Below, one piece after another: positions 21,215 to 57,800 of a stretch of 64,000 nt of DNA (positions are counted from its first letter, which is position 1; every line of letters begins with the position of its first letter). The stretch covers positions 134,294,001-134,358,000 of the forward strand of contig NW_024704742.1 of NCBI RefSeq assembly GCF_018977255.1, read 5' to 3'. The notes under the pieces are model-generated. The model was not told where the DNA came from, searched no databases, and was given only the letters and a program-made list of their open reading frames with translations. The position numbers were made by a program, and so were the translations under genes. The stretch comes from Callorhinchus milii (taxonomy: Eukaryota).

Positions 21215-21320
21215 ATGTCGGCGGAGTTTCCCACAGAATCACCCCCTCGCTTTGTGGCTTCACTCAAGTCTCAGCGAGTCTCAGAGAATGTTGACGTCCA
21301 ATTCTCCTGTACAATATCTG
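21215..21320 (+). CDS. ALPK2: ALPK2 first coding exon (exon starts at 21203), start of Ig-like domain 1
   Basis: MSAEFPTESPPRFVASLKSQRVSENVDVQFSCTIS(G). Acceptor tgttttag at 21202, donor G|gtaaat. Confidence 0.88.
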
Positions 21321-22712: not shown

Positions 22713-22830
22713 GTAACCCAGAACCAGAAATAACCTGGTACAGAGGAGACAAAGAGCTTCCTAAATCTCTCGGACTCCCTAAATACGAAATACTAAAGAA
22801 TGGCACGATTCACACACTGAAACTGTACAG
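22713..22830 (+). CDS. ALPK2: ALPK2 coding exon 2, Ig-like domain 1
   Basis: 118 nt, (G)NPEPEITWYRGDKELPKSLGLPKYEILKNGTIHTLKLY(R). Carries the I-set Ig G.P.P.ITWY motif, with canonical ag/gt boundaries and phase 1->2. Confidence 0.92.
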
Positions 22831-28450: not shown

Positions 28451-29896
28451 ATGCAGTGAGGACGATGCCACCATTTACCAAGCCTCAGCTAGAAGCAAAA
28501 AGGGGATCGCCATCTGCTCTGCACATCTGAGGGTGGGCTCTGTCACTGAAGCTCAGATCAGACAGAGAATGATGGACAGACTAAAGTTGAGACATCAAGC
28601 CAAAGACACAAGCCCAAACTCCATTGGCTCGGGGTCTGGGTGTGGGTGTGTGTCTGGGTCGGGTGGGCAGAAAGTAGGAGAAGTTCTGCACAGTGCTTGC
28701 AGTTCTCCACAAGAAGTGAGTGATAGCAAAGCACATTCTCCAGCTGTCAGTCGCTTCCCAAATAGAGATAAGGAGGCAGACCAGCTGGGAGTTAGATTGG
28801 AGCCTGTGAACCCAACGCTTCCTGAAGCAAGAGGGTCTCTGGGACTAGATCCCAGCCTTAACCCTGAGTTGGCTGCTGCAGATCGGAGCTGGAGCCTGGC
28901 TGGGTCTCCTGGGAAGCGCCTTGGAGCACTGGTTGAATCAGAGTCACAATTGCAACGTGTGAAAAACCAACCCATTACTGAAATTGCTATGCAACCTCAC
29001 AGCCCATATCCCGACCCCTCCCGGCGCCCGGGGAGATGGGTAGGGGTTGGGGCTTTCCCTCTGTGGGAGGAGGAGGACTTTCTGGATGAGCTGATGTGCT
29101 CTGATGTGATGAGTGAGACCGAGCAAGCTGTCTGGACCAAGGCTTTGAGCTGCCAGGATCCTCTCAGTCATGTTGTGAAATGGACAAGTTCCCTGGACAA
29201 CAAGCTGGTGATATGGACACAACCAGCAGAAGTGACCCTGGCCTCTCCTCTCCTCATCCAAGCGAGATCTACCATCCCACAGGTGAGGACACCTCCCCCT
29301 CCCAGTGGTGAGCACACCCCTTCTGGGCTTGTTGAACCCCATTCTGCACTTGTTGACCCCCATTCAGGGATCCTCGCCCTGCACCAATGCACCCAACGCC
29401 AAGCACAAGGCACCTGGTTGGGTAAACTTGGTAGAACATCACCCATTCTTCCTCCAGAAGGTCCTCACTTAGGGCGGGTGGATGCCAGAGTGGATCTGGG
29501 GGTGGGTGCCACTGGAGTGGGCCAGTTGGAAGAAAGCAGAGGGGGTGAGGTCTCAAGGGAGGAGTTGACACTCAAAGAGGCGTGTGTCCCAATCCTGGAT
29601 GACTCAAACTCCGCTGAAGTTCAGCAGAACCAGTCAGAAGAGACAACTATCGCTGCTCTGAGAGGGTTGGTCCTTCCACCAGGGAGCAAACCCAGGGGCA
29701 TTTGGGAAAGGTCTACAGTCAGGCTGATGGTGGGAGACACCGAGGAGAAGCCAGCAGACACCACAGCCCAGATCCTCTCCACAGTGGAGAGGAGCCAGGG
29801 AGCTCCCCATGCCTCACTCCAAGTGGAATTGACTAGGAAGAAAGCGGGGAACCGGAAGCAAGTTTTGGAGAGGAAAAGCACTGTGGGATCGATATG
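28451..29896 (+). CDS. ALPK2: ALPK2 coding exon 3: end of Ig1 plus low-complexity region (3' boundary and phase uncertain)
   Basis: After a (TC)n-tag acceptor it reads (R)CSEDDATIYQASARSKKGIAICSAHLRVG. Contains EEEDFLDELMCSDVMSETEQAVW, resembling the ALPK2 ..LEYLECSDVMTDYSNAVW motif. Strong donor G|gtaagc at 29896; alternative in-phase donor CAG|gtgagg at 29282. Confidence 0.85.
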
Positions 29897-37897: not shown

Positions 37898-40800
37898 GCC
37901 GAAATACAACCTTTGCTTTTAGAAGCTGGGGAAAGATGTTTTCCTGAAAATACTATCAGCTCAATGAGCAAAGTAGATGATCACAGTAACTGCAGGACGT
38001 GTGATGACAAGCAGACACCAGACCCCGATATTATATCCTTGTCACAGCAGGAGGATTGCAGTTGTCAATCTGACAGCACAAGGCTCGAGACAAAGTGTGA
38101 AATGCAAACAAATGTCTTGTTCACAAAGAGCATGACTTCAGAAAGCAGTGACTTCAAAGACAAAGGTGTTGAGCACAAGCCGGATGAACTATTGCTGTTG
38201 TCTCTGAGTGGTGAAAGGGATGAATTGGATCCGGCTTTAGGTGTGACGGAATGCAGATCATTCAGTCCTGTGACACAACCAACAAATTTTCTTAACACCT
38301 TGCATGATCGCACAGTGCAATCTTTGGAGGGTCTAGAAGAGAAAGTTTGTGAAGAACACAAGGACACTCAGGCTTCAGTGCAGTGTATGGGGGCAGATGC
38401 TGGCACCGCTAATGTGAGTTCTCCAAACCGTAGCGAAACGTTGAGTTTTCGAGCATCTGCATTAACTCCAGTTTGGCATCTGGATAAAGAACAGTCAGTG
38501 GTTGAGCACAGGTTGGCTGAACCAGTACTGTTATCTGTCAGTGGTGAAAGGGATGAATTGGATCTGGCTTTGGATGTGATGGAAAACAGAACGTTCAGTC
38601 CTGTAACTGAATCAACAGTAGCTTCTGCACAGTCAGTGGACTCATTACTGATTACGATTACTGATGATAAAGTGATGGCAAGAGAGGAAATGATAGATCG
38701 GAATGCTGGAGAAAATGAGACTGAAAGCATCAATCAAAAAGACACGTCAATCAGTGAATATCAGGGGCCTTACACAGTGCAGGATGTCATAAGTGGTGAC
38801 CATCAAGTGTGTGCCATCAATGAAAAAGTGGGTGAACAATCTGCTTACCCCACAGAGATATCCAAGTCTCCTGTTAAGGATGGAGGATGTGTTGGGGAAA
38901 AAGGTGAATTTGGTCAAAACATTGCAAGTTCAATTCGTGAAGGTGATGACCTCACATGTATGTCTGCACAACCTCAAGGAAGTGAAGCTGATTGCGGGAT
39001 GGAAAGCGGACATATGGCTGACCTTCTTATGCCTCTAATAACAGCAGATTGTGACCTAGAAATGGAGATTCCTTGCGATAATCTTTCCATTCGTGATATA
39101 GACATGGAACCCTTTAGACCATGGGTAGAATTGCACCTTCAAAACACGGATCCATCATCCGTTCATCACAAAGGGTCTGAGTCCAACGTATCAAAGGCAG
39201 AAGACCAATATGGAAGAGTGGATATACTCCGAGATAGTCAGACATCTGTGGCCATGTCCGTACACATTTCAAATGTCGCAGACACTTGTTCCACCATCGG
39301 TTTGACCGATAGTCAATGTTTGGATGAAGAACTGAAATCCTCTTTGGATGTTTATAATGATAATGCAGCTGGGCTCAAAAATAACAAAGCCAATTTGCCG
39401 GTTACGAAAAGTTCTCAAGTTGAGTCCAGCCCAATAGTTGCATGTGGACGCAAAATTGTACCCATTGTGCCACTTTCTCACTCCAGTGTTGGTCTTGTAG
39501 AAGGCTTTACTCCAATGCCAGTGCCTCAGATCAGTGCTGTGCACAAAGTAATAACCAGTGAACTGGAAAAATCTGCTTATGGATTACAAAACATCACTGA
39601 AAATATTCTTCTCAACACCACTGCAGAAGAGCATGACCAAACTGTTCAGCCTTTGGAGGGTCTACAAGAGAATGTTTGTGAAGAACACAAGGACACTCAG
39701 GCTTCAGTGCAATCCATGGGGTCACAGACTGGCACAGCTAACGTGACTTTTCCAAACAGTAGCAAAGCATTAAGTTTCCCAACAACTTTGGTTCCTCCAG
39801 TTTTGCATTTGGATAAACAACAGTCAGTAGCTGAGCACAAGTTGGCTGAACCGGTGCTGCTTTCTGTCAGTGGTGAAAGGGATGAATTGGATCTGGCTTT
39901 GGGTGTGATGGGAAACAGAACGTTCACTCCTGTGATAGAAGCAGCAGTAGCTGATGCACAGCCGGTGGACTCAATACTGATTGTAGATTGTGAGGTGATG
40001 GCAAGAGAGAAGGTGTCTCTCTCCAAAATGACAAATTGTAACTCCGGAGAAAATGAGACTGAAAGGGTCAATCAAGAGGACACATCCACCACTGAATGTC
40101 AGGGGCGTTGTACAGTGCAGGATGTTATAAACGGTGACCATCACACATGTGCTATCAACGAACAACTGGGTGAGCAATCTACTTATCCTACTGTGTTGTC
40201 CATGTCTCCTGTTACATGTCCACCATTTATAAATGCTAAGCCCAACATTCAGACAATATCAGGCCAAGTTCTGAATTCTGAACCTGTGCTGGATTTGGAA
40301 GACAATTTCCAAACACTGCAAAACCTGGGAGAACCTGACATTAAAGTGGACACCTCAGGATCGCCCATGCCATCCTTAACAAAAATGAACAAAAGTGATG
40401 GGTCTCTATTAGCAACAGCACAACTTCAACCAGCCTTGGTTAGCAATACAAGTGACAATGCAATGAGCATCATGGAGTTTATTGTGGCAAATAAGCAAGA
40501 ATCTTCTACCGCATGCTTCGCCATAATAGAGACATCTGTTCATCCTCAAATGATACATGAGTGTGCAGTGGAGAAGGCTACCAAGGTTGTTTTAGTGGAA
40601 GATCACGAGAGAGTGCAGTTTGAGCATGATATCCTGCCGACCGATCCAGAGTCTCTGGAACCTTTGTTCGTCAAGGTATCAAACAGGGATAAGATGGATA
40701 TAATTCAGCCCATGCTTCAAGATCAGGTCCACTCGGTGATACCCGTCACAGAGATCCTTGGGGCTACTGAGCTTATCGCGGCTGTGAATTGTAAATGTTC

Positions 40801-43800
40801 GGAAGAGTCTTCACCACGTACAGACCAGTTTGTATTGCTTCAGGGGGAAGCTGGTCAATTCACCAAGGATTCTGGAATCAGTGTCACCCCATCGGCAGAA
40901 GATAAGCACACATCAGATCAGAGCCAAAGTGGGAAAGAGGAGTCTGGGAATGTCTCCGCTAGTCTAAAACTGGGCACTCCACCAGTAAGGCTCAAGAGTT
41001 TAATTGTGAGGTCAGTTGCTTTGGATGTGAACAACATTTCCCAAAAATTGGGACACCGAGGCAATTGGACAGGGTCAGAAGAACATTCTTCGTTGAATGC
41101 AGGTCAAGTGGCTGGCCAGTTACGGACAAAAACAGAACCAGGAAAGAGCTGCAGCGGAAACAAACCTGTATCCATCACTGGAGAAAACACAGACACCAAT
41201 GATGGCAAAAGTCATGAGCTGCCCAACGTTCTCAGGAGCCCAGAACCTGACACAATCCCCCACCCGGTTGTAAACTCAGTCACAAAGGCTGAACCAGAGA
41301 TGCAGATGGAACATGGCAAAGGGTTCCCAAGAGGGGATCTTAACAAATGCAGTGCTCCAGCTGCCTTGAGCTGCTTTCCATCGGACGTCAATGCCAGGAC
41401 TTCAAGGCAAAACGCGGATGCTGAACGTAAGGAAACGGTTTGCCAGACACTGGAGCCACCCAGCAACAAGACCTCCATATTGCTGGCTCAGCTGGATGTG
41501 ACAAATGTCGCACAAAGAAATAAGGACCACACTGAACTCCTGTGCGCTCAGCAAGCATCGAAAATCTCAGTGCAAGATGGGCAGAGAAAGGCTATTGGCA
41601 CTGTCTCCTCTATACCATCAAAGCCTTTAGCCAAGGGGAATGTTGCCTTTGTGCCATATATCACAAAATCCTTGGGGCTACTGAGCTTACAGCAACCATG
41701 AATTCTATGAGCTCGGAAGGGTCGTCACCATGTGTAGACCATGCTTCTGCCTTGTTTCAAGGAGAAGCCGGCCAACTCACTAAGGGCTCTGAAACCAGTG
41801 TTGCCCTTTCCGCAGAGGATGGTGACGCATCAAATCAAAGCCAAGGTGGGACAGAGGAGTCTGCTAATGTTTCCGCTGGTCTAAGACTGGGCGCTCCACA
41901 ACTAAATGAACAGCTCAAGAGCTTAATGGTGAGATCAGCTGCCTCAAGTGTGAACATCAGTTTCCAAACGTTGGGAAGCCAAGGTGATTGCAAGTCAGGA
42001 TCAGTTGAACATTCTGCGTTGGATGCAGGCCAAGTGGCTGGGCAGTTACAGCCAAAAACAGAGCCAGGGAAAAGCTGCAGTGGAAACAAACCTGCGTCCA
42101 TCACTGGAGAAAACACAGAAACCAATAAAGGCAAAAATCATGACCTACCCACAGCTCTCAAGAGCCCAGAATCTGAAACGGTCGCCCATCTGATTGTACA
42201 CTCAGTCACAAACTCTGATACCATAGAACCAGAGATCCAGATGGAACTTGGCAAAGGGTTCCCAGGAGGGGATCTGAACAAGTCAAGTACACCAGTTGTC
42301 TTTCATTGTTTTCCATCAGACAGCAAGATGACAAAGGCAAACGCTGAACGTAAGGAAGCGATCTGCGATACACAAAAGCCGCCCAACAAGCTCAAACTTT
42401 CTGGCCGGAGGAATAAGGACAACGACTGTCAAAGAGATAAGGATGGCATCGAGCTCCCACATGCTCAGAAAGTATCTAAAGTCTTAGTGAAAGATAGACA
42501 GAGGAGCATTGTTGGCTCGGTCTCCTCTACGCCATCAAAGCCTTTAGCCAAGGAGAGCCTTGCATTTGTACCATGTATCTCAGAGAACCTTGGGGCTACT
42601 GAGCTTACTGCAACCATGAATTCTAGGTTCTCGGAAAAGTCTTCAACATGTGTAGACCAGTCTGCTTTGTTTCGGGGTGAAGCCAGTCAACTCAAGAAGG
42701 ACTTGGGAACCACTGTTACCCTATCTGCAGAGAGTGCTAACACATCAGTTCAAAGCCAAGGTGGGACAGAGGAGTCTGCGAATGTCTCCGCTAGTCTAAG
42801 ACTGGGCGCTCCTCCAGTAAGCGAACGGCTCAAGAGTTTAATTGTGAGGTCAGCTGCTTTGGATGTGAACAACAGTTCCCAAACATTGGGATACCGAGGC
42901 ATTTGGACAGGGTCAGGAGAACATTCTGCATTGAATGCGGGTCAAGTGGCTGGGCGATTACGGGCAAAAACAGAACCAGGGAAGAGCTGCAGTGGAAACA
43001 AATCTATATCCGTCACTGGAGAAAACACAGAAACCACTGAAGGCAAAAATCATGACCTGCCCAATATTCTCAGGAGCCCAGAACCTGACACAATCCCCCA
43101 CCCGATTGTAAACTCAGTCACAAAGGCTGATACCATAGAACCAGAGATGCAGGTGGAACTTGGCAAAGGGTTCCCAAGAGGGGATCTCAATAAGTCCAGT
43201 GCTCCAGCTGCCTTGAGCTGTTTTCCACCAGAATTCAAGGCCAGGACTTCAAGGCAAAACACGGATGCTGAACGTAAGCAAATGGTTTGCCAGACAATGA
43301 ATCCATCCAGCAACAAGACCTCCATATTTCCTGCTCAGCTGAACGTGGCGAATGTCTCACAAAGAAATAAGGACTACACTGAGCTCCTGTGTGCTCAGAA
43401 AGTGTCGAAAATCTCAGTGCAAGATGGGCAGAGAAAGGCTGTTGGCACGGTCTCCTCTATACCATCAAAGCCTTTAGCCAAGGGGCATATTGCCTTTGCA
43501 CCATGTGTCACAGAGATCCTTGGGGCTACTGAGCTTACTGCAACCATGAATTCTAAGTGCTCGGAAAAATCTTCACCATGTGTAGATCATGCATCTGCCT
43601 TATTTCAAGGAGAAGCCGGCCAACTCACTAAGGGTTCGGGAACCATTGTCGCCCTTTCCGCAGAGGATGAAGACACATCAGATCAAAGCCAAGGTGGGAC
43701 AGAGGAGTCTGCTAATGTAAGACTGGGTGCTCCACCAGTAAGTGAACGGCTCAAGAGCTTAATGGTGAGGTCAGCTGTCTCAGGTGTGAACAACAGTTCC

Positions 43801-46800
43801 CAAACACTGCAAACCCGAAGCAATTGCAAGACGGTAGCAGGAGAACATTCTGCGTTGAATGCAGGTCAAGTAGCTGGGAAGTTACAGCCAAAAACAAAAC
43901 CAGGGAAGAGCTGCAGGGGAAACAAACCTGCGTCCACCACCAGAGAAAGCACAGAAACTAATAAAGGCAAAAATCATGACCTGTCCACAGATCTAAAGAG
44001 CCCAAAATCTGATACATTCACCCACCAGATTGTACACTCAGTGACAAATACTGATACCATAGAACCAGAGATCCATATGAAACTTGGCAAAGGGTTCCCA
44101 GTAGTGAATCTCAACAAGTCAAGTGCACCAGATATCTTGGACTATCTTCCATCAGACAGCAAGGTGACGAACACGGATGCTGAACGTAAGGAAACGGTTT
44201 GCAAGACACCAAAGCCACCCAACAACAAGACCCCCAAATTTTCTGCTCAGCTGAATGTGGAGAACGACACACAAAGAAATAAGGACAGCATTGAGTTACT
44301 GGCTAATCAGAAAGTATCTAAAGTCTCAGTGCAAGAAGGGCAGAGTGGGGTTGATGGCTCAGTCTCCTCTATGCTATCAAAGCCTTTTGCCAAGGGGAGC
44401 ATTGCCTTTGTACCATGTATCACAGAGATCCTTAGGGCTACTGAGCTTACCACAGCTGTGAATTGTAAGAACGCGGAAGCGTCGTCACCACTTGTATACC
44501 AGTCTGACTTATTTCAGGGGGAAGCCGATCAACTCACCAAGGACTCGGGAATCAGTGTCACCCTTTCTGCAGAGGATGATCACACATCAGTTCAAAGCCA
44601 AGGTGAGACAGAAGAGTCTGCTAATGTCTCCGTTGGTCTAAGATTGGACGTTCCACCAATAAGCGAACGGCTCCATAGCTTAATGGTGAGGTCAGCTGCC
44701 TTGGGGGTGGACAATAGTTCCCAAAGGTTGGGACACCGAGGCGTTTGCAAGATGGTGGCAGGAGAACATTCTGTATTGAATGCAGGTCAAGTGGCTGGGC
44801 GATTATGGCCAAAAACAGAACCAGGGAAGAGCTGCAGGGGAAACAAAACTGTGTCCGTTACCGGAGAAAAAACCCAAACCAATGAAAATTATGACCTGCC
44901 CAATGCTCTCAAGAGCCTAGAATCTGACCCAGTCGCCCACCCGGTTGTACACTCAGTCACAAACACCAATACCATAGAACCAGAGATACAGATAGAACTT
45001 GGTAAGCAGATCCCAGAAAGGGATATCAACAAGTCCAGTCCTCCGGCTTCAATGCCCTATTTTACACAGGCCTTCAAGACGACGACCACAGATACTGAAC
45101 ACAAGAAAACGGTTTGCCAGACACTGAAGCAGTCTGACAACAAGACCCCAAAATTTTATGCTCAACTGAATGCAGAGAATGCCTTACGACTTACGGGGTG
45201 TGAAAGAGATAAGGACCATGTTGAGCTCCCATGTGCTCAGAAAGTATCTAAATTCTCATTGAAAGATAGGCAGAGGAGGGTTGTTGGCTCAGTCTCCTCT
45301 ATGCCTTCAAAGCCTTTAGCCAAGGGGAGTGTTGCCTTTGTACCATGTATCACAGAGATCCTGGGGGCTACTGAGCTAACTGCAACTATGAATTCTAAAT
45401 GCCCGGAAGAGTCTTCACCACGTGTAGATAAGTCTGCCTTGCTTCAGGGAGAAGCCAGTCAACTCACCAAGGACTTGGGAAGTCCGCCCAGTTGCGTAAT
45501 TTCCGCAGGAGACAACCACACATTGGATCAAAGCCTCGGTGAGACAGAGGAGTCTGTTAATGTCTCCACTAGTCTAAGACCAGGCACTCCACCAGGAAGT
45601 GAACGGCTCAAGAACTTAAAGTCGAGGTTAGCTGCCTTGGGGGTAGGCAACAGTTCCCAAACATTAGGATGCCGTGGTGGTTGCAAGACAGTCTCAGTTG
45701 AACCTTCTGCTATGAATGCAGGCTATGTAGCTGGCCGATTACGGCCAAAAACAGAACCAAAGAAGACCTGCAGGGGAAATGTACCTGCATCCGTCACCAG
45801 AGAAAACAACAAAATCAATGAAGACAAAAATCATGACCTGTTCAACGCTCTTAAGAGTCCAGAATCTGACACAGTCGCCCACCAGGTTGTGCACATGGTC
45901 ACAAACGCCAATACCATAGAACCAGAGATGCAGATGGAACTTGGCAAGGAGTTCCCAACAGGGGTTCTTAACAAGTCTGGGGCTCCAGATGCTTTGCGCT
46001 GCTTTCCACTGGGCTTCAAGGCGAGGACTTCAAGGCAAAACAAGGAAGCTGAATGTAAGAAAATGGTATGCCAGACACAGAAGCTGCCCAGTAACAAGAC
46101 CCCCAAGCTTCCTGCTCGGCTGAATATGAAGAACGACTCACAGGAGCATGAAAGAGATAAGGATGGCAATGAGCTCCCAGGTGCTCCAAAAGTATCTAAA
46201 GTCTCAGTGCAAGATGGACAGGGGAGTATTGTTGGCTCGGTCTCCTCTACAGAGATCCTTGGGGCTAGTGAGCTTACTGCAGCCGTGAATAGTCAACGCT
46301 CGGAAGAGTCTTCACCACGTGTAGACCAGTCTGCCTTGTTTCAGGGAGAAGTCGGACAACTCACCAGGGTCTCGGAATGTCTGCCCAGTGTCTCCCTTTC
46401 CACAGAAGATGGCCACGCATCAGATCAAAGTGAAGGTGGGACAGAGGAGTCTACGAATGTCTCTGCTGGTCTAAGACTGGGCCCTCCACCAGTAAGTGAA
46501 CGGCTCAAGAGCTTAAAGTTGAGGTCAGCTGCCTCAGGTGTGGACAATAGTTCCCAAATACTGCAAAACCGAGGCGATTCTGCATTGAATGCAGATCAAG
46601 AGGCTGGGCGATTACAGCTAAAAACAGAACCAGGGAAGAGCTGCAGGGGAACCAAACCTGTGTCCGTCACCGGAGAAAACGCAGAAACCAACGAAGGTAA
46701 AAATCATGACCTGCCCAACGCTCTCAAGAGGCCAGAATCTGACACAGTCGCCCACTCAGTTGTACACTCAGTCACTAACTCTGATACTATAGAACCAGAG

Positions 46801-47515
46801 ATCCAGATGGAAATTGATAAGGGGTTCCCAAAAGGGAATCTCAACAAGTCCAGTGCTCCAGCTGGCTTGTATTGTTTTCCACCGGACTTGAAGGCAATAA
46901 GTAAGGATATTGAATGTAAGAAAATGGTTTGTCAGTCACTGAAGCCACCCAGCAACAAAATCCCCAAATTTCCTGCTCAACTGAATCCGGAGAATGATTC
47001 ATGGGAATACGAAAGAGATAAGGACATCATCGAGCTCCCACATGCTCAGACAGTATCTAAAGTCTCAGTGCAAGATGAACAAAGGAGTGCCGTTGGTTCG
47101 GCCTCCCCTCTGCCATCAAAATCTTTAGCCCAGGGGAACGTTGCCTTTGTACCATTCCACTGCATGACAACTTTAGCAGCCGCGACTACCAAAGAGCTGA
47201 TGTTGGGAGCCAGGAAGAAGGTTCATCTGCTGAAGCCACCTAGTGAGATCTCAGGTGCTGCCCCCGAGCCGGTCAGCCTCGTTGTGAAGGTAGATGATCA
47301 TCCCAAGAAGGAAGCTGTGAAGCGCTTATGTTTGTCCCCCGTCAGACAGGGGACAGTCCTGTCGGAGACGTGTTCCTCAGCAGAGAAAGAAAATTTCACT
47401 GAAGACATCACGGCAACTAAAAGGATTTGTCAGAAGGCCGGTGAGGAGGCTACTCAACACAACGATTACCAGGAGCTCAGAAAAGCACTGCAGCCTCAGC
47501 AGGAAGTGCAGAAAG
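37898..47515 (+). CDS. ALPK2: ALPK2 giant exon (~9.6 kb) containing internal repeats and one apparent frameshift at ~41665
   Basis: Acceptor tttctttttgacag at 37897. Overlapping ORFs 37913-41701 and 41542-47532 join if one A is added at 41665-41668. Donor AAAG|gtaaa at 47515 is in phase with the kinase exon. Confidence 0.85.
38168..40213 (+). repeat. Second coding repeat family: ~575 bp duplication (38303-38875 vs 39632-40213) plus a partial third copy (38168-38278)
   Basis: HD.TVQ.LEGL.E.VCEEHKDTQASVQ.MG...SPV occurs twice, and LLS.SGERDELD.AL.V occurs three times. Confidence 0.9.
40751..47155 (+). repeat. Seven tandem coding repeats of ~900-930 bp (~305 aa)
   Basis: The unit marker E[I/N]L[G/R]A[T/S]EL recurs at ~40751, 41666, 42583, 43513, 44425, 45355 and 46252. 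The last unit ends at AFVP, ~47155. Confidence 0.95.
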
Positions 47516-47996
47516 GTAAAAGTTTTCATTAAAGACTTAAACTCAATTTATACAGACTAGCATCCCGGAGCCCTTGGCAGTGGCGGAGTCCGCCCCCGAG
47601 CCACGGGGAGAGGGGGGTGGGAGGAGACTGGAAGCACGATCAAAAAGGAAAGTCTTTAGGTGGGATTGAAAGTGGGGAGGGAGGGGGCAAGGAGGAGGGA
47701 TTGAGGGAGAGTGTTCCAGAGTTTTGGGGCATAGTGGCTGAAGGTACGGCCACCGATGGTGGAACGGATTGGACGAGGGCTGAATTGGAGGCCGGAGCCA
47801 GATTTTATTATTATTATTATTAAGTGTAATCACAGTGTGGTTACCGGCATTGTACTTGCATGAATCCTGCGAGCAGAAAATAGAGACTCGGTGCCACAGA
47901 GGTCCTTATAGAAATGCAAGTTGCTGTTGTAGCCATACAGAGGGGTGGAGGGCACGGAATTCATGGTAGCATTCCTCCTTTTGTCATTCTTTCCAG

Positions 47997-48271
47997 GCGG
48001 GGAGGAGATTGAGCTGCTGCAACTCACAGTTGAAAAGGAGCTCACAACCCAATGTAACTTTGGTGGCCAGATGTGGGGTAGGATTGCGACAGACGAAGTC
48101 CATTTTGGTGAAGGTTTGCACCGCAAGGCATTTCGGACTACAGTTATCTGTGGCCTTTTACCTCTGTTTGATTCCGGGCACAGCTGTGTGTTAAAAATTC
48201 ACAACACCATTGCATACGGGACCAAATCAAACAACGATCTCATCGAGCTGAACTATAAGTTAGCAGTACAG
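47997..48271 (+). CDS. ALPK2: ALPK2 alpha-kinase domain exon 1
   Basis: 275 nt, GGEEIELLQL...GRIATDEVHFGEGLHRKAFRTTVICGLLPLFDSGHSCVLKIHNTIAYGTKSNNDLIELNYKLAVQ. HFGEG.HRKAF and IAYGT are ALPK2-type. Canonical splice sites. Confidence 0.96.
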
Positions 48272-49016
48272 GTAAAACTTGTTAACAGAAAATGGGAAGC
48301 TCCTTGGCATTAACCCATTATTGGGGATTAACCTTTGGAATCATTGTAAAGACACACAGTTAATACATATCGCTGCTAAAATCCTGTCCAGCGCTTTGAG
48401 ATGGCTCGACAACACAATAAGGCACTACATCAAATACAAGGATTATAATTACTTGTTGGTTGAATGGATGTTCCAGGAAATTGACTTTGATCAATTAACA
48501 CGGGGCGAGCATTGAGTGAGAAATTAGTTTTGAAAAAGGATAAGTGATAAGTTATTTAATGAGTTAAGTGCTGTGTGAAACCGCCTTCCTGCAACTATGG
48601 TTGAGTTTTCAGGTTTCAGGTTTAATCTCTGATGCTATCCCAGAGACCCTTCACCTCACCCCCTTACTCTCCACCACCAATCCCTGCCTTAAGACCGAAC
48701 TCTACAACCTTGTTTTAGGCACCTCTAACTCTTCCCCTTTCCTTCTCAGCTCCCCGCCCACCAGGCTCCCATCAGCTGTGTTAAGCTCTTTGAAAAGTCT
48801 TGCCAACAGGAAAGGCGTTGTATAAATGTGAATTTTTGTTGTTGCCTTTTAACAATGTTGTGGCGCAATTGAAAAGAGGAGGCAGCTTTTCCCCGTGTCC
48901 TGGCCAACAATTCTCCAGGGCAAGAGCTGATCTTTTAATTCATAGCTGTTTGAGCGACTTTTGCTAAGCATATAAACATTCGCTGTGTTCAGCAGGAAAC
49001 AACGGTAGTTTACTGT

Positions 49017-49386
49017 GGAGTAGTCCAATGGTTAGCGCGCTCGACTCTCAAGCAAGAGGACCTGGGTTCGATTCGCGGGCAGGGTGAAACCTTAGGCAAG
49101 TTTCCTTACTCCACACGCCTATTTACCTAGCAATAAGTAGGAACCCGGTTGTTAGTTCATTGGGAGATCGCTTTTCAGGGGTAATAATCCCTCCCCAATA
49201 AAACAGGTTCACTCAATTCACGCCTGTTTTGGGGACATTGTTGTGTGCAATTCGCTGCCACTTTCGGCCCCCCCCAAAAAATTCAGTCAATCCACTTTAT
49301 AGTATATTCTGTGAAGCGCTTTGAGACATCTTACCGACATGATCAGGCACTATATCAAATGCAAAGATTATTTATTATGATTATTA
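49017..49386 (+). mobile_element. tRNA-derived SINE, long variant
   Basis: Head, extra segment, Deu-like body and (TTA)n tail, ending just before the kinase exon 2 acceptor. Confidence 0.85.
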
Positions 49387-49416
49387 GTTACTGTGATCGC
49401 CGTCTTTCATTGCCAG

Positions 49417-49505
49417 GAGTGCCAAGTGCAGAACACTGCTCGGGAATACGCCTGTGGATTTGCAGCAGAGGGGATGTTACTAGATAACTTTGGAGATGGT
49501 CCTGA
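49417..49505 (+). CDS. ALPK2: ALPK2 alpha-kinase domain exon 2
   Basis: 89 nt, ECQVQNTAREYACGFAAEGMLLDNFGDGP(E). Bounded by ccag| and |gtgagt. Confidence 0.95.
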
Positions 49506-50390
49506 GTGAGTAAAAACTGTTAAGCAGTTAAGCGATAAATTGTTTAATTAGTTAAGCGCTGTGTGATACTTCCTTTGAAGATTGAGTTTCTCTGTGACAA
49601 TTTGACAGATTTTTGGCCATCTTCTCTGGTGCTGATCAGCTCAAATGACCAGATTTTCCTTGCAGGAAACTCAGTTTGCCTGGCTCAGTTGGTAGCATTC
49701 TCACCTCTGGGTCAGCAGGTCGTGGGTTCAAGCCACACGTTGGGGCTTTGAGCTCACTTAGTCTAGGCTGGCACGCCAATGCAGTGCTGGGGGGAGCGCG
49801 CAGAATGGTCAGAGATGCTGTACTTTGGATGAGCCGTTAAACTGAGGTCCTGTCTGTGTCTGTTCAGGTGGATGGTAAAGATCCCATGGAACTATTTGAA
49901 AAGAGAAGAGACCTGGCCATCATTCTGCCCCAAAATACAATCGACCGTTCACTTCACCGCTGTGTGCTAACTGGCTGCTGCGTTCACCCACAAAAATACA
50001 GTCGCTGTACTTTACAGCACATTCTTGTGCCTCGACCTCTTCACCGTACCATCACCGGCCGTGCTTTTAGCCACTACAACTTGAAGTTTTAGAATTCTTT
50101 CCCCCAATCCCTCCGATTTGCCCCCACTTTTCCCTCTTTTAGATCACGATTGAAGACTTTCCTCTTCGACTGTGCTTACGGTCACCTCCTCCCTTCCCCC
50201 CCAGCTCGGTGTCAGACTCCACCACTGTTAAGCGCTCCGAGATGCTCCGAGGTGAAGCAACTTGCAGACATGCCAGAGCTATATCAAGACCAAAGCCCTT
50301 ACTGATAGACCACTAAAGGCAGCAAGCCACCCCTCCTTAATCCCCGAGCATCTGCTGTTCCTAATCTGCCGGCTGGCATTCCTTCCTCAG

Positions 50391-50608
50391 GGTCATTCCC
50401 ATCTATCTGATCCACCGGACGGCCAACATCATTCCCTATGCCACGGTGGAGGAGGAGCTGATCGGGGACTTTGTGAAGTATTCGGTGAGGGACGGCAGGG
50501 AGCTGAACGTGGGCAGAAAGGTGTCTGAGGCCGGTCAGAAATGCTGCACCTTCCAGCACTGGGTGTATCAGAGGACTGATGGAAACCTCCTTGTGACTGA
50601 TATGCAAG
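50391..50608 (+). CDS. ALPK2: ALPK2 alpha-kinase domain exon 3
   Basis: 218 nt, [72 protein letters not shown](G). Confidence 0.97.
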
Positions 50609-51572: not shown

Positions 51573-51621
51573 GTGTGGGGATGAAGTTAACCGACATTGG
51601 GATTGCAACGTGTAGCAAAGG
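51573..51621 (+). CDS. ALPK2: ALPK2 alpha-kinase domain exon 4
   Basis: 49 nt, (G)VGMKLTDIGIATCSK(G). Bounded by tgcag| and |gtaagt. Confidence 0.95.
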
Positions 51622-54807: not shown

Positions 54808-57800
54808 GGACCATTCAGCCCCTCAAGCCTGTTCCACCATTCTATTAGATCATGGCTGATCTGTACCCCAACTCTACTTACCTGCCTCTGCTCCATATCG
54901 CTTGACACCCTGACCTAACAAGAGAAGATCATCTGGACTCATTCAGGAAACAGCCACATGCTGTGATGTGCAGGTATTCTGGAAGGATGAGATCAAGTGG
55001 GCTGTATATCCACCTCTCTCTATGGCTTCAAACTAAATAAATGTCAATCCACTTGTGAAGTTCTCTCTCCATTGACATCCTAGAAGGTTGAAGTGGAGCT
55101 AAGTGGGTTTGCTTTCACTGCCCCGTGTTTTCTAATCTGCATTGTGACAATAGCACTAAGAGACTGTCAATGTTTATGGTTTTGTGCAATTCTGAGCATG
55201 AGAATATAGTTAAATCGGATCTCTAGTAGCACGTTACAACACAGGAGCAGTAGGAGGCCATTCAGCCCATCAAGCCTGTTCCACCCAGATGAGCCTAACC
55301 TCATTTGAATCTGTTTTCAATGGTTCTGTTTGAAATCCTAATAAAAAACTTGATCTTCTTACTTTTGGTGAGCTGGGGAGAGGAGAACCACATGAATTTA
55401 TTTATACAAGGGAAGTCCATCTGGCCCAGAGAAATATTGACCATTATTCTCAGCTACAGCAGGAGATGCAGTGATGGAGAACTGATTATTTTAGATACGT
55501 TGCAATTAATTGTCAACATAAAGCACTCTTAATAAAAAAAGTAATATTTTGGTCACTCAATCCACGACTGTTTGTGAGACATTGCTAAGTGCAATTGGCT
55601 GCTGTGTTCGCCCACAAAACACACAGTCACTCCACTTTATATTTTATTCTGTGAAGCACTTTGGGATTTCCTTTTGACATGCTATATCAAATGCAAGAAT
55701 TATTACTGTAATTACGATTATTATTAATAGGTGTTTTGTTTTCTATACGTTGGTGATTTTCAATAACTTTGAATGGAAGGGTGACTGAATGGATGGAGCA
55801 ATTATTTCAATTTTTTTAAAAATAATTTTCATAATTTCAAAAAAAATTCACAAAATAAACTCAATTTGGGGAAAATACACATAAAAGTGTTTTTTAATAA
55901 AACAAATCCTTTGATGTCAATTGCATATGAGATGTTGTGGTCATTATTTCCCAGGAACCTATTCTTGCACTGATTAGATCGTCTTATAGCAAAGGTTAAA
56001 TAGAATACAGAAATGTACACAGTGTGGAGAAAGGGCAGGTAAATGGGACTGAAAGTATTGCTCTTTAAAAGAGCTGGCACAGGCACGATGGGCTGAATAG
56101 CTTTCTTCTCTGCTTTAAATTTCTATGTTTCTAAAGAAAATAAATCGGCCGTTCAACCCATCCTAGCATGTTTCTTTACTTATTCCGCATGCCTTTCTTT
56201 ACCCAGCAGTAAGTAGGAACCCGGTTGTTAGTCGATTGGCGGATCGCTTTCCAGGGGTAATAATCCTTTATAAAAAAANCTGACAGGCCCCCACCACCCC
56301 ACTATCAGCATGTCTGACACATGCTTATATCCATCACCATGTTAAGATTATCCAAACCACACCAAGTGTTCCATCCATACATGTCACTTACACATGGAGA
56401 TTTCCCTGTGTCTGGAATGGGATGCACACTCTCTTCCCAAGGGACGTGTCCGGCTTATTACCTAATTCCAGAAAATATGAGGTGCAAGTTGTCAAGAGCC
56501 AAGGTTTGGGGAGCGTTTTCTGCGGTAATTACTGGAGTTTAACCAGATAAAAATACATAGATTCCCATTGAGAGCACTATCTGGCAAACTTCCCCACTGC
56601 TTGTCCAGCTAGGACTAGCCTAGTCCTGTTAGGGCTTCAGGTTGCGGGTTAACAGTTTTCACTATTATTGATGATATCGCACACTGAACAGACGACAGGG
56701 GTTTGTATCTTTAGCAGTAAGAAATTTGACAGAATTACATAGAACACTCCAGCACAGAAACAAACCTTGTTTTAGTTTTATTTACTTTTATATCTTCAAT
56801 ATAATTAAACACTTAAGCAGAAAACATGTCCATTACAACAATAAGGTTACATTTATATAGCGCCTTTCAACAACAACAGCAACAAGAAATTACATTTGTA
56901 TAGCGCCTTCACATCGGTAGGACATCCCAAGGCACTGAATAAAAGTGCTGTTATCAGAATCTCAGAGCGCTCGACAGTGGTGTGGTTTGAACAGTGAGCT
57001 GGAAAGAGAGGGGAAATGGCTGAAGACAAGGTCAAAGAGGAAAGTCATCAGGTGTGATTTGAAGATGGGCAAAGAGGAGGCAAGTCAGAGGGATTGAGGC
57101 TGGGAGTTCCAGAGATTTGGGACACAGTGGCTGAAACCACGGCCAACGGAGGTGGAGTGGAGGGGACGAGGGACATGCAGAAGACCTGAGCCAGTTGAGC
57201 GAAAGCGGTGGGTAGTGAGTGTTGTATAAGGTAAATAACCCTACAATGCAACTAACCATACACATCAATAAAATGAGGCTAAGACCAGGATATAAAACCT
57301 CGGGCTCTGTGATCTAACAATATATATGTTAACACGTTTTCATTATGTATATTATACATTAATGTTTCTAGTCAGAGTCCTGCAGCACATTTTATCAAAC
57401 TGTATTCAAAGACTTGAATAGGCAAAACGTATTCCTAAATAAACACGTTAAAGCATAGATAGCAATTACACATCTGTACGTCAGATCTATAACCATAACA
57501 TAATCTTTGCTGGAATGGCAACAACAACAACTTGGATTTATATAGCGCCCTCCACGCCGGACAGCATCTCAGAGCGCTTTACAGAAACGCAGCTTTCATG
57601 TAAGGCGGATGTTCTAAAGTGCTTCACAGGATACACTGTGAAGTGGAATGACTGTGATTGTGGGTGAATCCAGCAGCCCGATTACCCCCGTTTCACTAAA
57701 GAAATACAATAACACCAAATTCTAGACTCTGAGGCCATTTTGCTACATTTTGAGCTGGTTGAGCTCCAGCGGTTATCTCCAATGCACATACAGGAGACCC

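Follow-up and report, generated by a model that had tools for sequence, protein, structure and literature searches.

The second Ig-like domain of the alpha-kinase ALPK2 has very probably been lost in Callorhinchus milii

The heart alpha-kinase ALPK2 and the muscle alpha-kinase ALPK3 share an architecture with two Ig-like domains, the second of which (Ig2) lies directly before the alpha-kinase domain. In the 64,000-nucleotide stretch of Callorhinchus milii DNA analyzed here (the window), an alpha-kinase gene has no Ig-like domain 2 directly before its kinase. This raises the questions of whether the domain is missing from the genome or hidden by the assembly, how the junction between the giant exon and the kinase arose, and why such a loss could be tolerated.

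Judged by sequence comparison, this is a holocephalan ALPK2 gene and the only orthologue in its genome. ALPK2 in the window is 98-100% identical to C. milii proteins, with a C. milii protein matching the giant exon at 98%, and the top match of the first kinase exon is shark ALPK2 (74% identity to Heptranchias; 34 matches from 69 candidates). Shark ALPK2 was mapped by tblastn to nine coding exons, in order, from 21215 to 53947 (Table 1). The N-terminal Ig-like domain 1 (Ig1) and the large low-complexity exons are present; residues 4-145 of the shark protein find their counterparts, at 60-75%, in three exons, and the first coding exon has a weak I-set match (E 0.037). At the 3' end, the translation of the giant-exon tail and the five kinase exons is letter for letter that of RefSeq XP_042191861.1 (P0036), stop included, and this protein matches PF02816 over 1-185 of 185 positions (E 5e-42). 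A search of the whole genome with the kinase exon returned two matches, ALPK2 in the window and ALPK3 on contig C22, and no second copy of ALPK2. In a phylogenetic tree, the window protein is sister to elasmobranch ALPK2 (support 89/96), with ALPK3 as a separate clade (100/99), and a wider survey tree likewise groups the window kinase with ALPK2, not ALPK3. The number of genome matches and this grouping contradict the idea, raised in an initial annotation of the window, that the gene might be a paralogue. The ALPK3 paralogue of this genome (L002 and L003; G000:C22:9021181-9023238, minus strand) has its two Ig2 exons and helix exon intact. A single N at position 56279, downstream of ALPK2, possibly marks a sequence join.

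Table 1. Coordinates of the ALPK2 features in the window
Feature	Position	Strand	Evidence or comment
First coding exon (from ATG), start of Ig-like domain 1	21215..21320	+	tblastn to shark residues 4-40, 68%; splice context
Second coding exon, middle of Ig1	22713..22830	+	Shark residues 40-79, 75%; I-set E 0.002
Third coding exon, end of Ig1 and low-complexity region	28451..29896	+	Shark homology, public models
Giant exon, 9.6 kb	37898..47515	+	ORFs, self-alignment, homology to shark giant-exon end, RNA-type contigs
Apparent frameshift in giant exon	41664..41665	+	One base more in three other runs
Phase-1 GT-AG intron, 481 bp	47516..47996	+	Site of the three Ig2 exons of relatives (plus linker exon in elasmobranchs)
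Truncated dispersed repeat, LINE 3' end	47560..47802	-	Repeat matches
First alpha-kinase exon (GEEIEL...), ancestral phase-1 acceptor	47997..48271	+	74% to Heptranchias; RNA joints on both sides
Kinase exon 2	49417..49505	+	RNA joint 48268 to 49414, skip 1145, GT..AG; RefSeq translation
Kinase exon 3	50391..50608	+	Shark tblastn and RefSeq translation
Kinase exon 4	51573..51621	+	Shark tblastn and RefSeq translation
Last coding exon, through stop codon	53752..53947	+	Shark tblastn and RefSeq translation

The product predicted from these exons consists of Ig1, a very long repetitive spacer and an alpha-kinase, about 4,040 residues as counted from exon lengths, and it probably still works as a muscle alpha-kinase. 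Between 40745 and 47155, self-alignment of the giant exon revealed seven diverged tandem units of about 920 bp each (73-79% identical), and one stretch of shark ALPK2 matches every unit. Because of these units, together with an additional duplication (38302-38876 and 39631-40214), the protein is about twice the length of its shark counterpart. Compared to the ALPK2 genes of sharks and a ray (Heptranchias perlo XP_067840122.1, Scyliorhinus, Mobula), the window gene has the same Ig1 exons, a homologous giant-exon 3' end and the same five kinase exons, and it belongs to the same clade with 74-79% kinase identity. Unlike them, it lacks Ig2, the helix exon that follows Ig2 and the elasmobranch linker exon, and its giant exon, unlike that of shark ALPK2, is expanded by the seven tandem units.

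The giant exon is spliced straight into the kinase. The last base of the exon, 47515, is followed by GT at 47516-47517, and AG at 47995-47996 precedes the next exon, so that the phase-1 intron joins ...ELRKALQPQQEVQK-G-GEEIELLQ in frame. Four of the eight sequencing runs containing the stretch were aligned to 41300-49700: X1 and X2, of DNA type, and X5 and X6, of RNA type, a type inferred by the program and recorded for none of them; both RNA-type runs skip GT-AG introns, which the two DNA-type runs do not. Contigs of both RNA-type runs, which come from two studies, carry a joint from 47513 to 47995 (skip 481, GT..AG), which with a cut of +2 corresponds to 47515 and 47997; this joint was not seen in the two DNA-type runs. 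The junction contigs, one per run, have depths of 87.5 and 16.1 and at least 255 letters on either side, and both continue from the kinase exon into the next exon. The same junction is found in three public C. milii models, two of them (P0035 and P0038, which are about 99% identical and have an 18-nt insertion) from a different haplotype; all three are predicted gene models, and that of RefSeq may have been built on this assembly. The translation and the contigs from both RNA-type runs thus bear out the initial proposal that the phase-1 donor at 47515 and the acceptor at 47997 are joined in frame. Of the intron, which the same annotation described as mostly an L2-type remnant, 302 of 481 bases match dispersed repeats from elsewhere in the window, mainly through one element at 47560-47802. 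The terminal peptide motif of this element suggests an L2; Pfam names no family for any of four fragments of this kind.

Searches at two scales found no Ig2 exon belonging to this gene. A profile of 36 Ig2 sequences, run against 3672 six-frame segments of the window and the ALPK3 locus L003, detected no Ig2 coding in the intron; nothing in the window scored better than E 0.9, and the weak matches all lay outside the intron. The same profile recovers both ALPK3 Ig2 exons of this genome (E 1e-17 and 5e-14). When shark Ig2 was searched against the whole assembly (1762 contigs), 44 matches were obtained at E<=10 from 46 candidates. The best two were the ALPK3 Ig2 exons (52-53% identity, E 3.5e-10 and 4.5e-5), and the remainder were generic Ig sequences (E>=0.001), none of them on contig C1. 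An ALPK2 Ig2 exon was found with this query on none of the 1762 contigs. Together with the RNA-type contigs, the assembly search and the profile agree with the initial annotation that the Ig2 exons are absent and the giant exon is spliced directly to the kinase. We conclude that the block of small exons for the second Ig-like domain has very probably been lost from the C. milii genome.

The assembly could in principle mislead here, if copies of the intronic repeat had been merged and the real intron were longer, with Ig2 exons that the main transcript skips. DNA contigs of X1 cover 46622-47659 and 47737-48435, and no listed DNA contig spans the 77 bases between them (47660-47736), the sole unspanned part of the intron, which lies within a very high-copy repeat; hidden sequence there would be compatible with the independent DNA. 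The assembly also contains at least one single-base error in ALPK2, and contigs drop rare isoforms. We nevertheless consider a collapsed intron quite improbable. None of the 1762 contigs carries an ALPK2 Ig2 exon, yet the more distant ALPK3 exons were found; both RNA-type contigs run unbroken over the junction, with no second path seen; and the models P0035 and P0038, from a different haplotype, also lack Ig2. For the repeat at 47560-47802, one other copy can be aligned along 236 bases with just two gaps of one base each, and this alignment crosses the unspanned stretch, as would fit a single element, although it would also fit a merge at homologous positions.

How the junction arose can be read from the relatives. 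Their giant exon has ...K at its end, and downstream of it come the Ig2 exons and a short helix exon, to which elasmobranchs add a further linker. Alignment identifies the exon end QELRKALQPQQEVQK as the ancestral end of the giant exon. In all six Ig2-bearing elasmobranchs compared, the end of the giant exon aligns ungapped with the last 32 residues of the window's giant exon (9-14 of 32 identical, z 4.7-8.2). The last 13 residues, by contrast, have 0-2 of 13 identities to the post-Ig2 (helix) exon of 12 species, with z below 0. The initial annotation had instead proposed a deletion by which the giant exon acquired the tail of the last Ig2 exon. Although ELRKALQPQQEVQK superficially resembles the helix that follows Ig2, and both end in phase 1, the collinearity of the tail with the giant-exon ends of sharks and its lack of likeness to the post-Ig2 exon leave this version with next to no chance of being correct. 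Since the exon end in the window is homologous to the giant-exon ends of relatives, the ancestral donor and acceptor have been reused.

In C. milii ALPK3, phase-1 junctions connect the second Ig2 exon to the helix exon and the helix exon to the kinase exon. For the 5' end of the Ig2 block, phase 1 is deduced from the phase-1 donor in the window and the K-A-P junction of relatives. In the predicted structure of the frog protein, helix residues 102-113 precede an exon boundary at 116 and the first kinase strand occupies 118-127; because this strand follows the boundary, the kinase fold would lie entirely within the kinase exons. The block may have been deleted in a single step, as recombination between repeats could do, or its exons may have been skipped and then have decayed; either route could have been taken.

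Two frame breaks in the window sequence, at 41664-41665 and near 29855, could suggest that the gene is a decaying duplicate or pseudogene of ALPK2. The first was rejected as grounds for this interpretation: all three runs that cover the site have the base (an extra A in X1, an extra G in X2 and X6; X5 has no cover), and P0035 and P0038 read through it. It is most likely a one-base assembly deletion, which probably explains why the RefSeq model of this species has only 380 residues, about a tenth of the real length. The second, a one-base break at 29853-29856 in the third coding exon, was identified relative to the public model XP_007901315.1, and neither break is present in the public models. 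The genome has no second ALPK2, spliced contigs exist and the kinase motifs, as far as alignment can tell, are intact, leaving only a very slight chance that this is a pseudogene. Conservation was measured on 125 ALPK2 rows with Ig2, among which birds and isoforms are numerous. Of the 150 kinase columns kept in 90% or more of these rows, 8 are changed in the window, compared to 5-8 in the seven Ig2-bearing elasmobranchs shown. None of these eight departures falls in what we take to be the P-loop, catalytic and zinc-binding motifs. The first kinase strand, encoded within 47997-48080, reads EEIELLQ..EKEL in all chondrichthyans examined, compared to EEIEF.QL.FREDF in bony vertebrates. In-frame length polymorphisms occur in the giant exon at 47170 and 46072 (18 bases extra in X1 and X5; 6 missing in X2 and X6).

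Loss of Ig2 does not appear to be unique to C. milii. A survey gathered 284 proteins, of which 252 were scorable after exclusion of 22 without the first kinase exon, 7 without upstream sequence, 2 short kinases and 1 that aligned poorly (P0234); its rows include isoforms and are redundant, not independent. Among the 184 ALPK2 rows, Ig2 is intact in 165, absent in 15 and decayed in 4, counting as intact eighteen teleost-type rows (62-80 bits) that keep the Ig core residues. ALPK3, a cardiomyopathy gene, has Ig2 in 68 of 68 rows, one of them partly. The 15 rows without Ig2 come from C. milii (3), crocodilians (6, from four species), dasyatid rays (3, from two species), the white shark (1) and teleost-clade proteins (2). 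They fall in six separate places on both trees, each with Ig2-bearing sisters. Counted from the drawn kinase tree and the survey tree, with P0003, which splits off only through an alternative C-terminus, placed with the dasyatid rows, this pattern suggests six complete losses, four of them in C. milii, crocodilians, dasyatid rays and the white shark, the evidence in lineages other than C. milii being protein models. The claim of a new architecture in the initial annotation does not survive this comparison, given the same or similar loss in models of several other vertebrate lineages. In other chondrichthyans, where the annotation suggested looking for the same structure, the dasyatid-ray and white-shark models lack Ig2 and keep the linker exon. 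No other named holocephalan is among the protein-search matches.

The crocodilian case most resembles that of C. milii. Gavialis (XP_019373846.1), Crocodylus (XP_019387219.1), Alligator sinensis (XP_014373198.1) and A. mississippiensis (KYO28940.1) have the same direct junction, with a giant exon ending in K followed by G and the first kinase exon, and the four species have ...RKDSK/GSEEIEF in common (the slash marks the junction). In one unspliced crocodilian ORF, the exon sequence stops at this K-G as well and is followed by an apparent intron, consistent with use of the same donor. According to these protein models, the crocodilian loss is independent of that in C. milii, as crocodilians are placed among turtles and birds that keep Ig2. 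The dasyatids Hemitrygon akajei and Hypanus sabinus and the white shark Carcharodon carcharias also lack Ig2 and keep the ancestral giant-exon end; unlike C. milii, they retain the elasmobranch linker exon between the giant exon and the kinase. Individual cases could be due to gaps in annotation or to exon skipping, particularly that of the white shark, which is represented by one model and whose close relative Cetorhinus keeps Ig2; four crocodilian species would hardly be explained in this way. Three salamander genera keep exon-length Ig2 sequence that has lost the core Ig residues; salamander ALPK2 (P0052, P0087, P0099, P0282) scores 27-33 bits, compared to 128-171 for other full-length copies in the set.

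The connection between Ig2 and the kinase also varies, with a linker of 2-3 to 51 residues among models. In elasmobranch ALPK2 (P0002, P0006, P0007, P0011, P0043), about 23-39 additional linker residues separate Ig2 from the kinase; neither bony vertebrates nor the window have them. The helix exon is skipped in frog, shark, bird and dolphin models (P0021, P0046, P0050, P0056, P0105, P0131, P0136), leaving 2-3 residues between Ig2 and the kinase, and the shark isoform models P0041, P0044, P0141 and P0142 end within or just after Ig2, without the kinase. At conserved kinase columns, crocodilians depart at 7-8, compared to 1-3 in the turtle and bird shown, and the dasyatid and white-shark kinases at 6, compared to 5 in their Ig2-bearing sisters. 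Among the conserved positions, crocodilians have changes at D15 and F22, and both C. milii and salamanders at P132 and N135; A71T occurs in C. milii and crocodilians alike.

Background on the function of these proteins comes from several papers. ALPK3 is described as an M-band pseudokinase without kinase activity (PMC12132735), whose Ig-plus-pseudokinase arrangement may dock MuRF proteins (PMC12132735, PMC9698156); ALPK3-dependent phosphorylation has been reported instead (PMC11358020). ALPK2 is reported to phosphorylate tropomyosin 1, as observed with a "catalytic domain" construct of human residues 1800-2169, and mouse Alpk2 knockouts have normal systolic function (PMC11599786). In zebrafish, alpk2 is needed (PMC5993047; also cited in PMC11599786). 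A test of Ig-domain function beside the ALPK2 or ALPK3 alpha-kinase was not encountered in the literature covered. The human construct presumably still includes most of Ig2. None of 27 sequence matches is a solved structure of ALPK2 or ALPK3. The best structural match of the predicted ALPK2 kinase is the TRPM6/TRPM7 kinase domain (1ia9, E 1.4e-17), which, unlike ALPK2, is fused to an ion channel and has about 22% identity. The TRPM6/TRPM7 kinase is thought to derive from an ALPK2/3 ancestor, with intron positions in common (PMC13143021), and by analogy may represent an older case of this kinase exon block being used without Ig2. The best-ranked full-text matches, which do not extend to subscription literature, contained no report of Ig loss in ALPK2 or of ALPK2 in cartilaginous fish. 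The junction itself is already public in gene models, and the recurrent loss in ALPK2 is without mention in the literature covered.

Relaxed constraint on a frame-neutral module is our best reading of these observations, and we consider this explanation as a whole very likely. The process, loss of a symmetric exon block, is an ordinary one. Because the Ig2 block has phase 1 at both ends and the kinase fold would begin no more than three residues from the acceptor, skipping or deletion of the block should immediately leave a kinase that is in frame and able to fold. In ALPK2, Ig2 may be a loosely tethered module under weak constraint, which would account for several independent losses; the frame-neutral block, the fold at the acceptor, the variable linker and the salamander decay fit such a module. 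A single-chain AlphaFold2 model of frog Ig2 plus kinase has both domains confident with a dip at the linker, and its pTM of 0.63 and 0.65 is near the value to be expected from the kinase by itself (250 of 397 residues), compatible with either a docked or a free Ig2. ALPK3, possibly a pseudokinase scaffold in which Ig2 takes part in docking, retains the domain; that ALPK3 needs Ig2 and ALPK2 does not is what this contrast suggests. Some observations weigh against relaxed constraint. Ig2 is well conserved in 165 of the 184 ALPK2 rows, implying real constraint in most lineages; the crocodilian departures and the P132 and N135 changes are a weak hint that Ig2 touches the kinase; and loss of alpk2 in zebrafish leads to severe heart defects (cited in PMC11599786).

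A rival reading is adaptive rewiring, in which Ig2 would normally bind the kinase or a sarcomeric partner and selection favoured its removal, which would free or relocate the kinase. Loss of one module in at least four named lineages, alteration of conserved kinase positions (D15, F22, P132, N135, A71T) in some lineages with absent or decayed Ig2, and the docking role proposed for ALPK3 (PMC12132735) are in keeping with it. Slow decay in place in three salamander genera is instead what relaxed selection predicts, the dasyatid and white-shark kinases depart no more than those of their Ig2-bearing sisters, and the lineages have, in our judgement, no obvious physiology in common; we therefore regard selection for removal as unlikely. 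A proposal that all chondrichthyans first lost a docking surface was discarded, as the crocodilian and salamander cases do not require it and the conserved columns have too few departures to bear on it.

Relaxed constraint thus remains our preferred explanation, and Ig2 looks dispensable in ALPK2, although it is kept in the sister gene ALPK3. The more interesting point is this recurrent loss in one gene compared to full retention in the other. The natural Ig2-less ALPK2 proteins are ready-made constructs and offer a clear contrast between paralogues. More speculatively, and with a doubtful chance of being right, Ig2 could have been a sarcomere-docking or kinase-gating module of the ALPK2/ALPK3 ancestor that ALPK3 kept as a scaffold and ALPK2 shed, frame-neutrally, at least 5-7 times (holocephalan, dasyatid rays, white shark, crocodilians, salamanders by decay, and two teleost-clade cases), each time giving an untethered or differently regulated heart kinase. 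If this were true, the natural variants would show the role of Ig2, and it could explain why loss of ALPK2 is severe in zebrafish and mild in mice.
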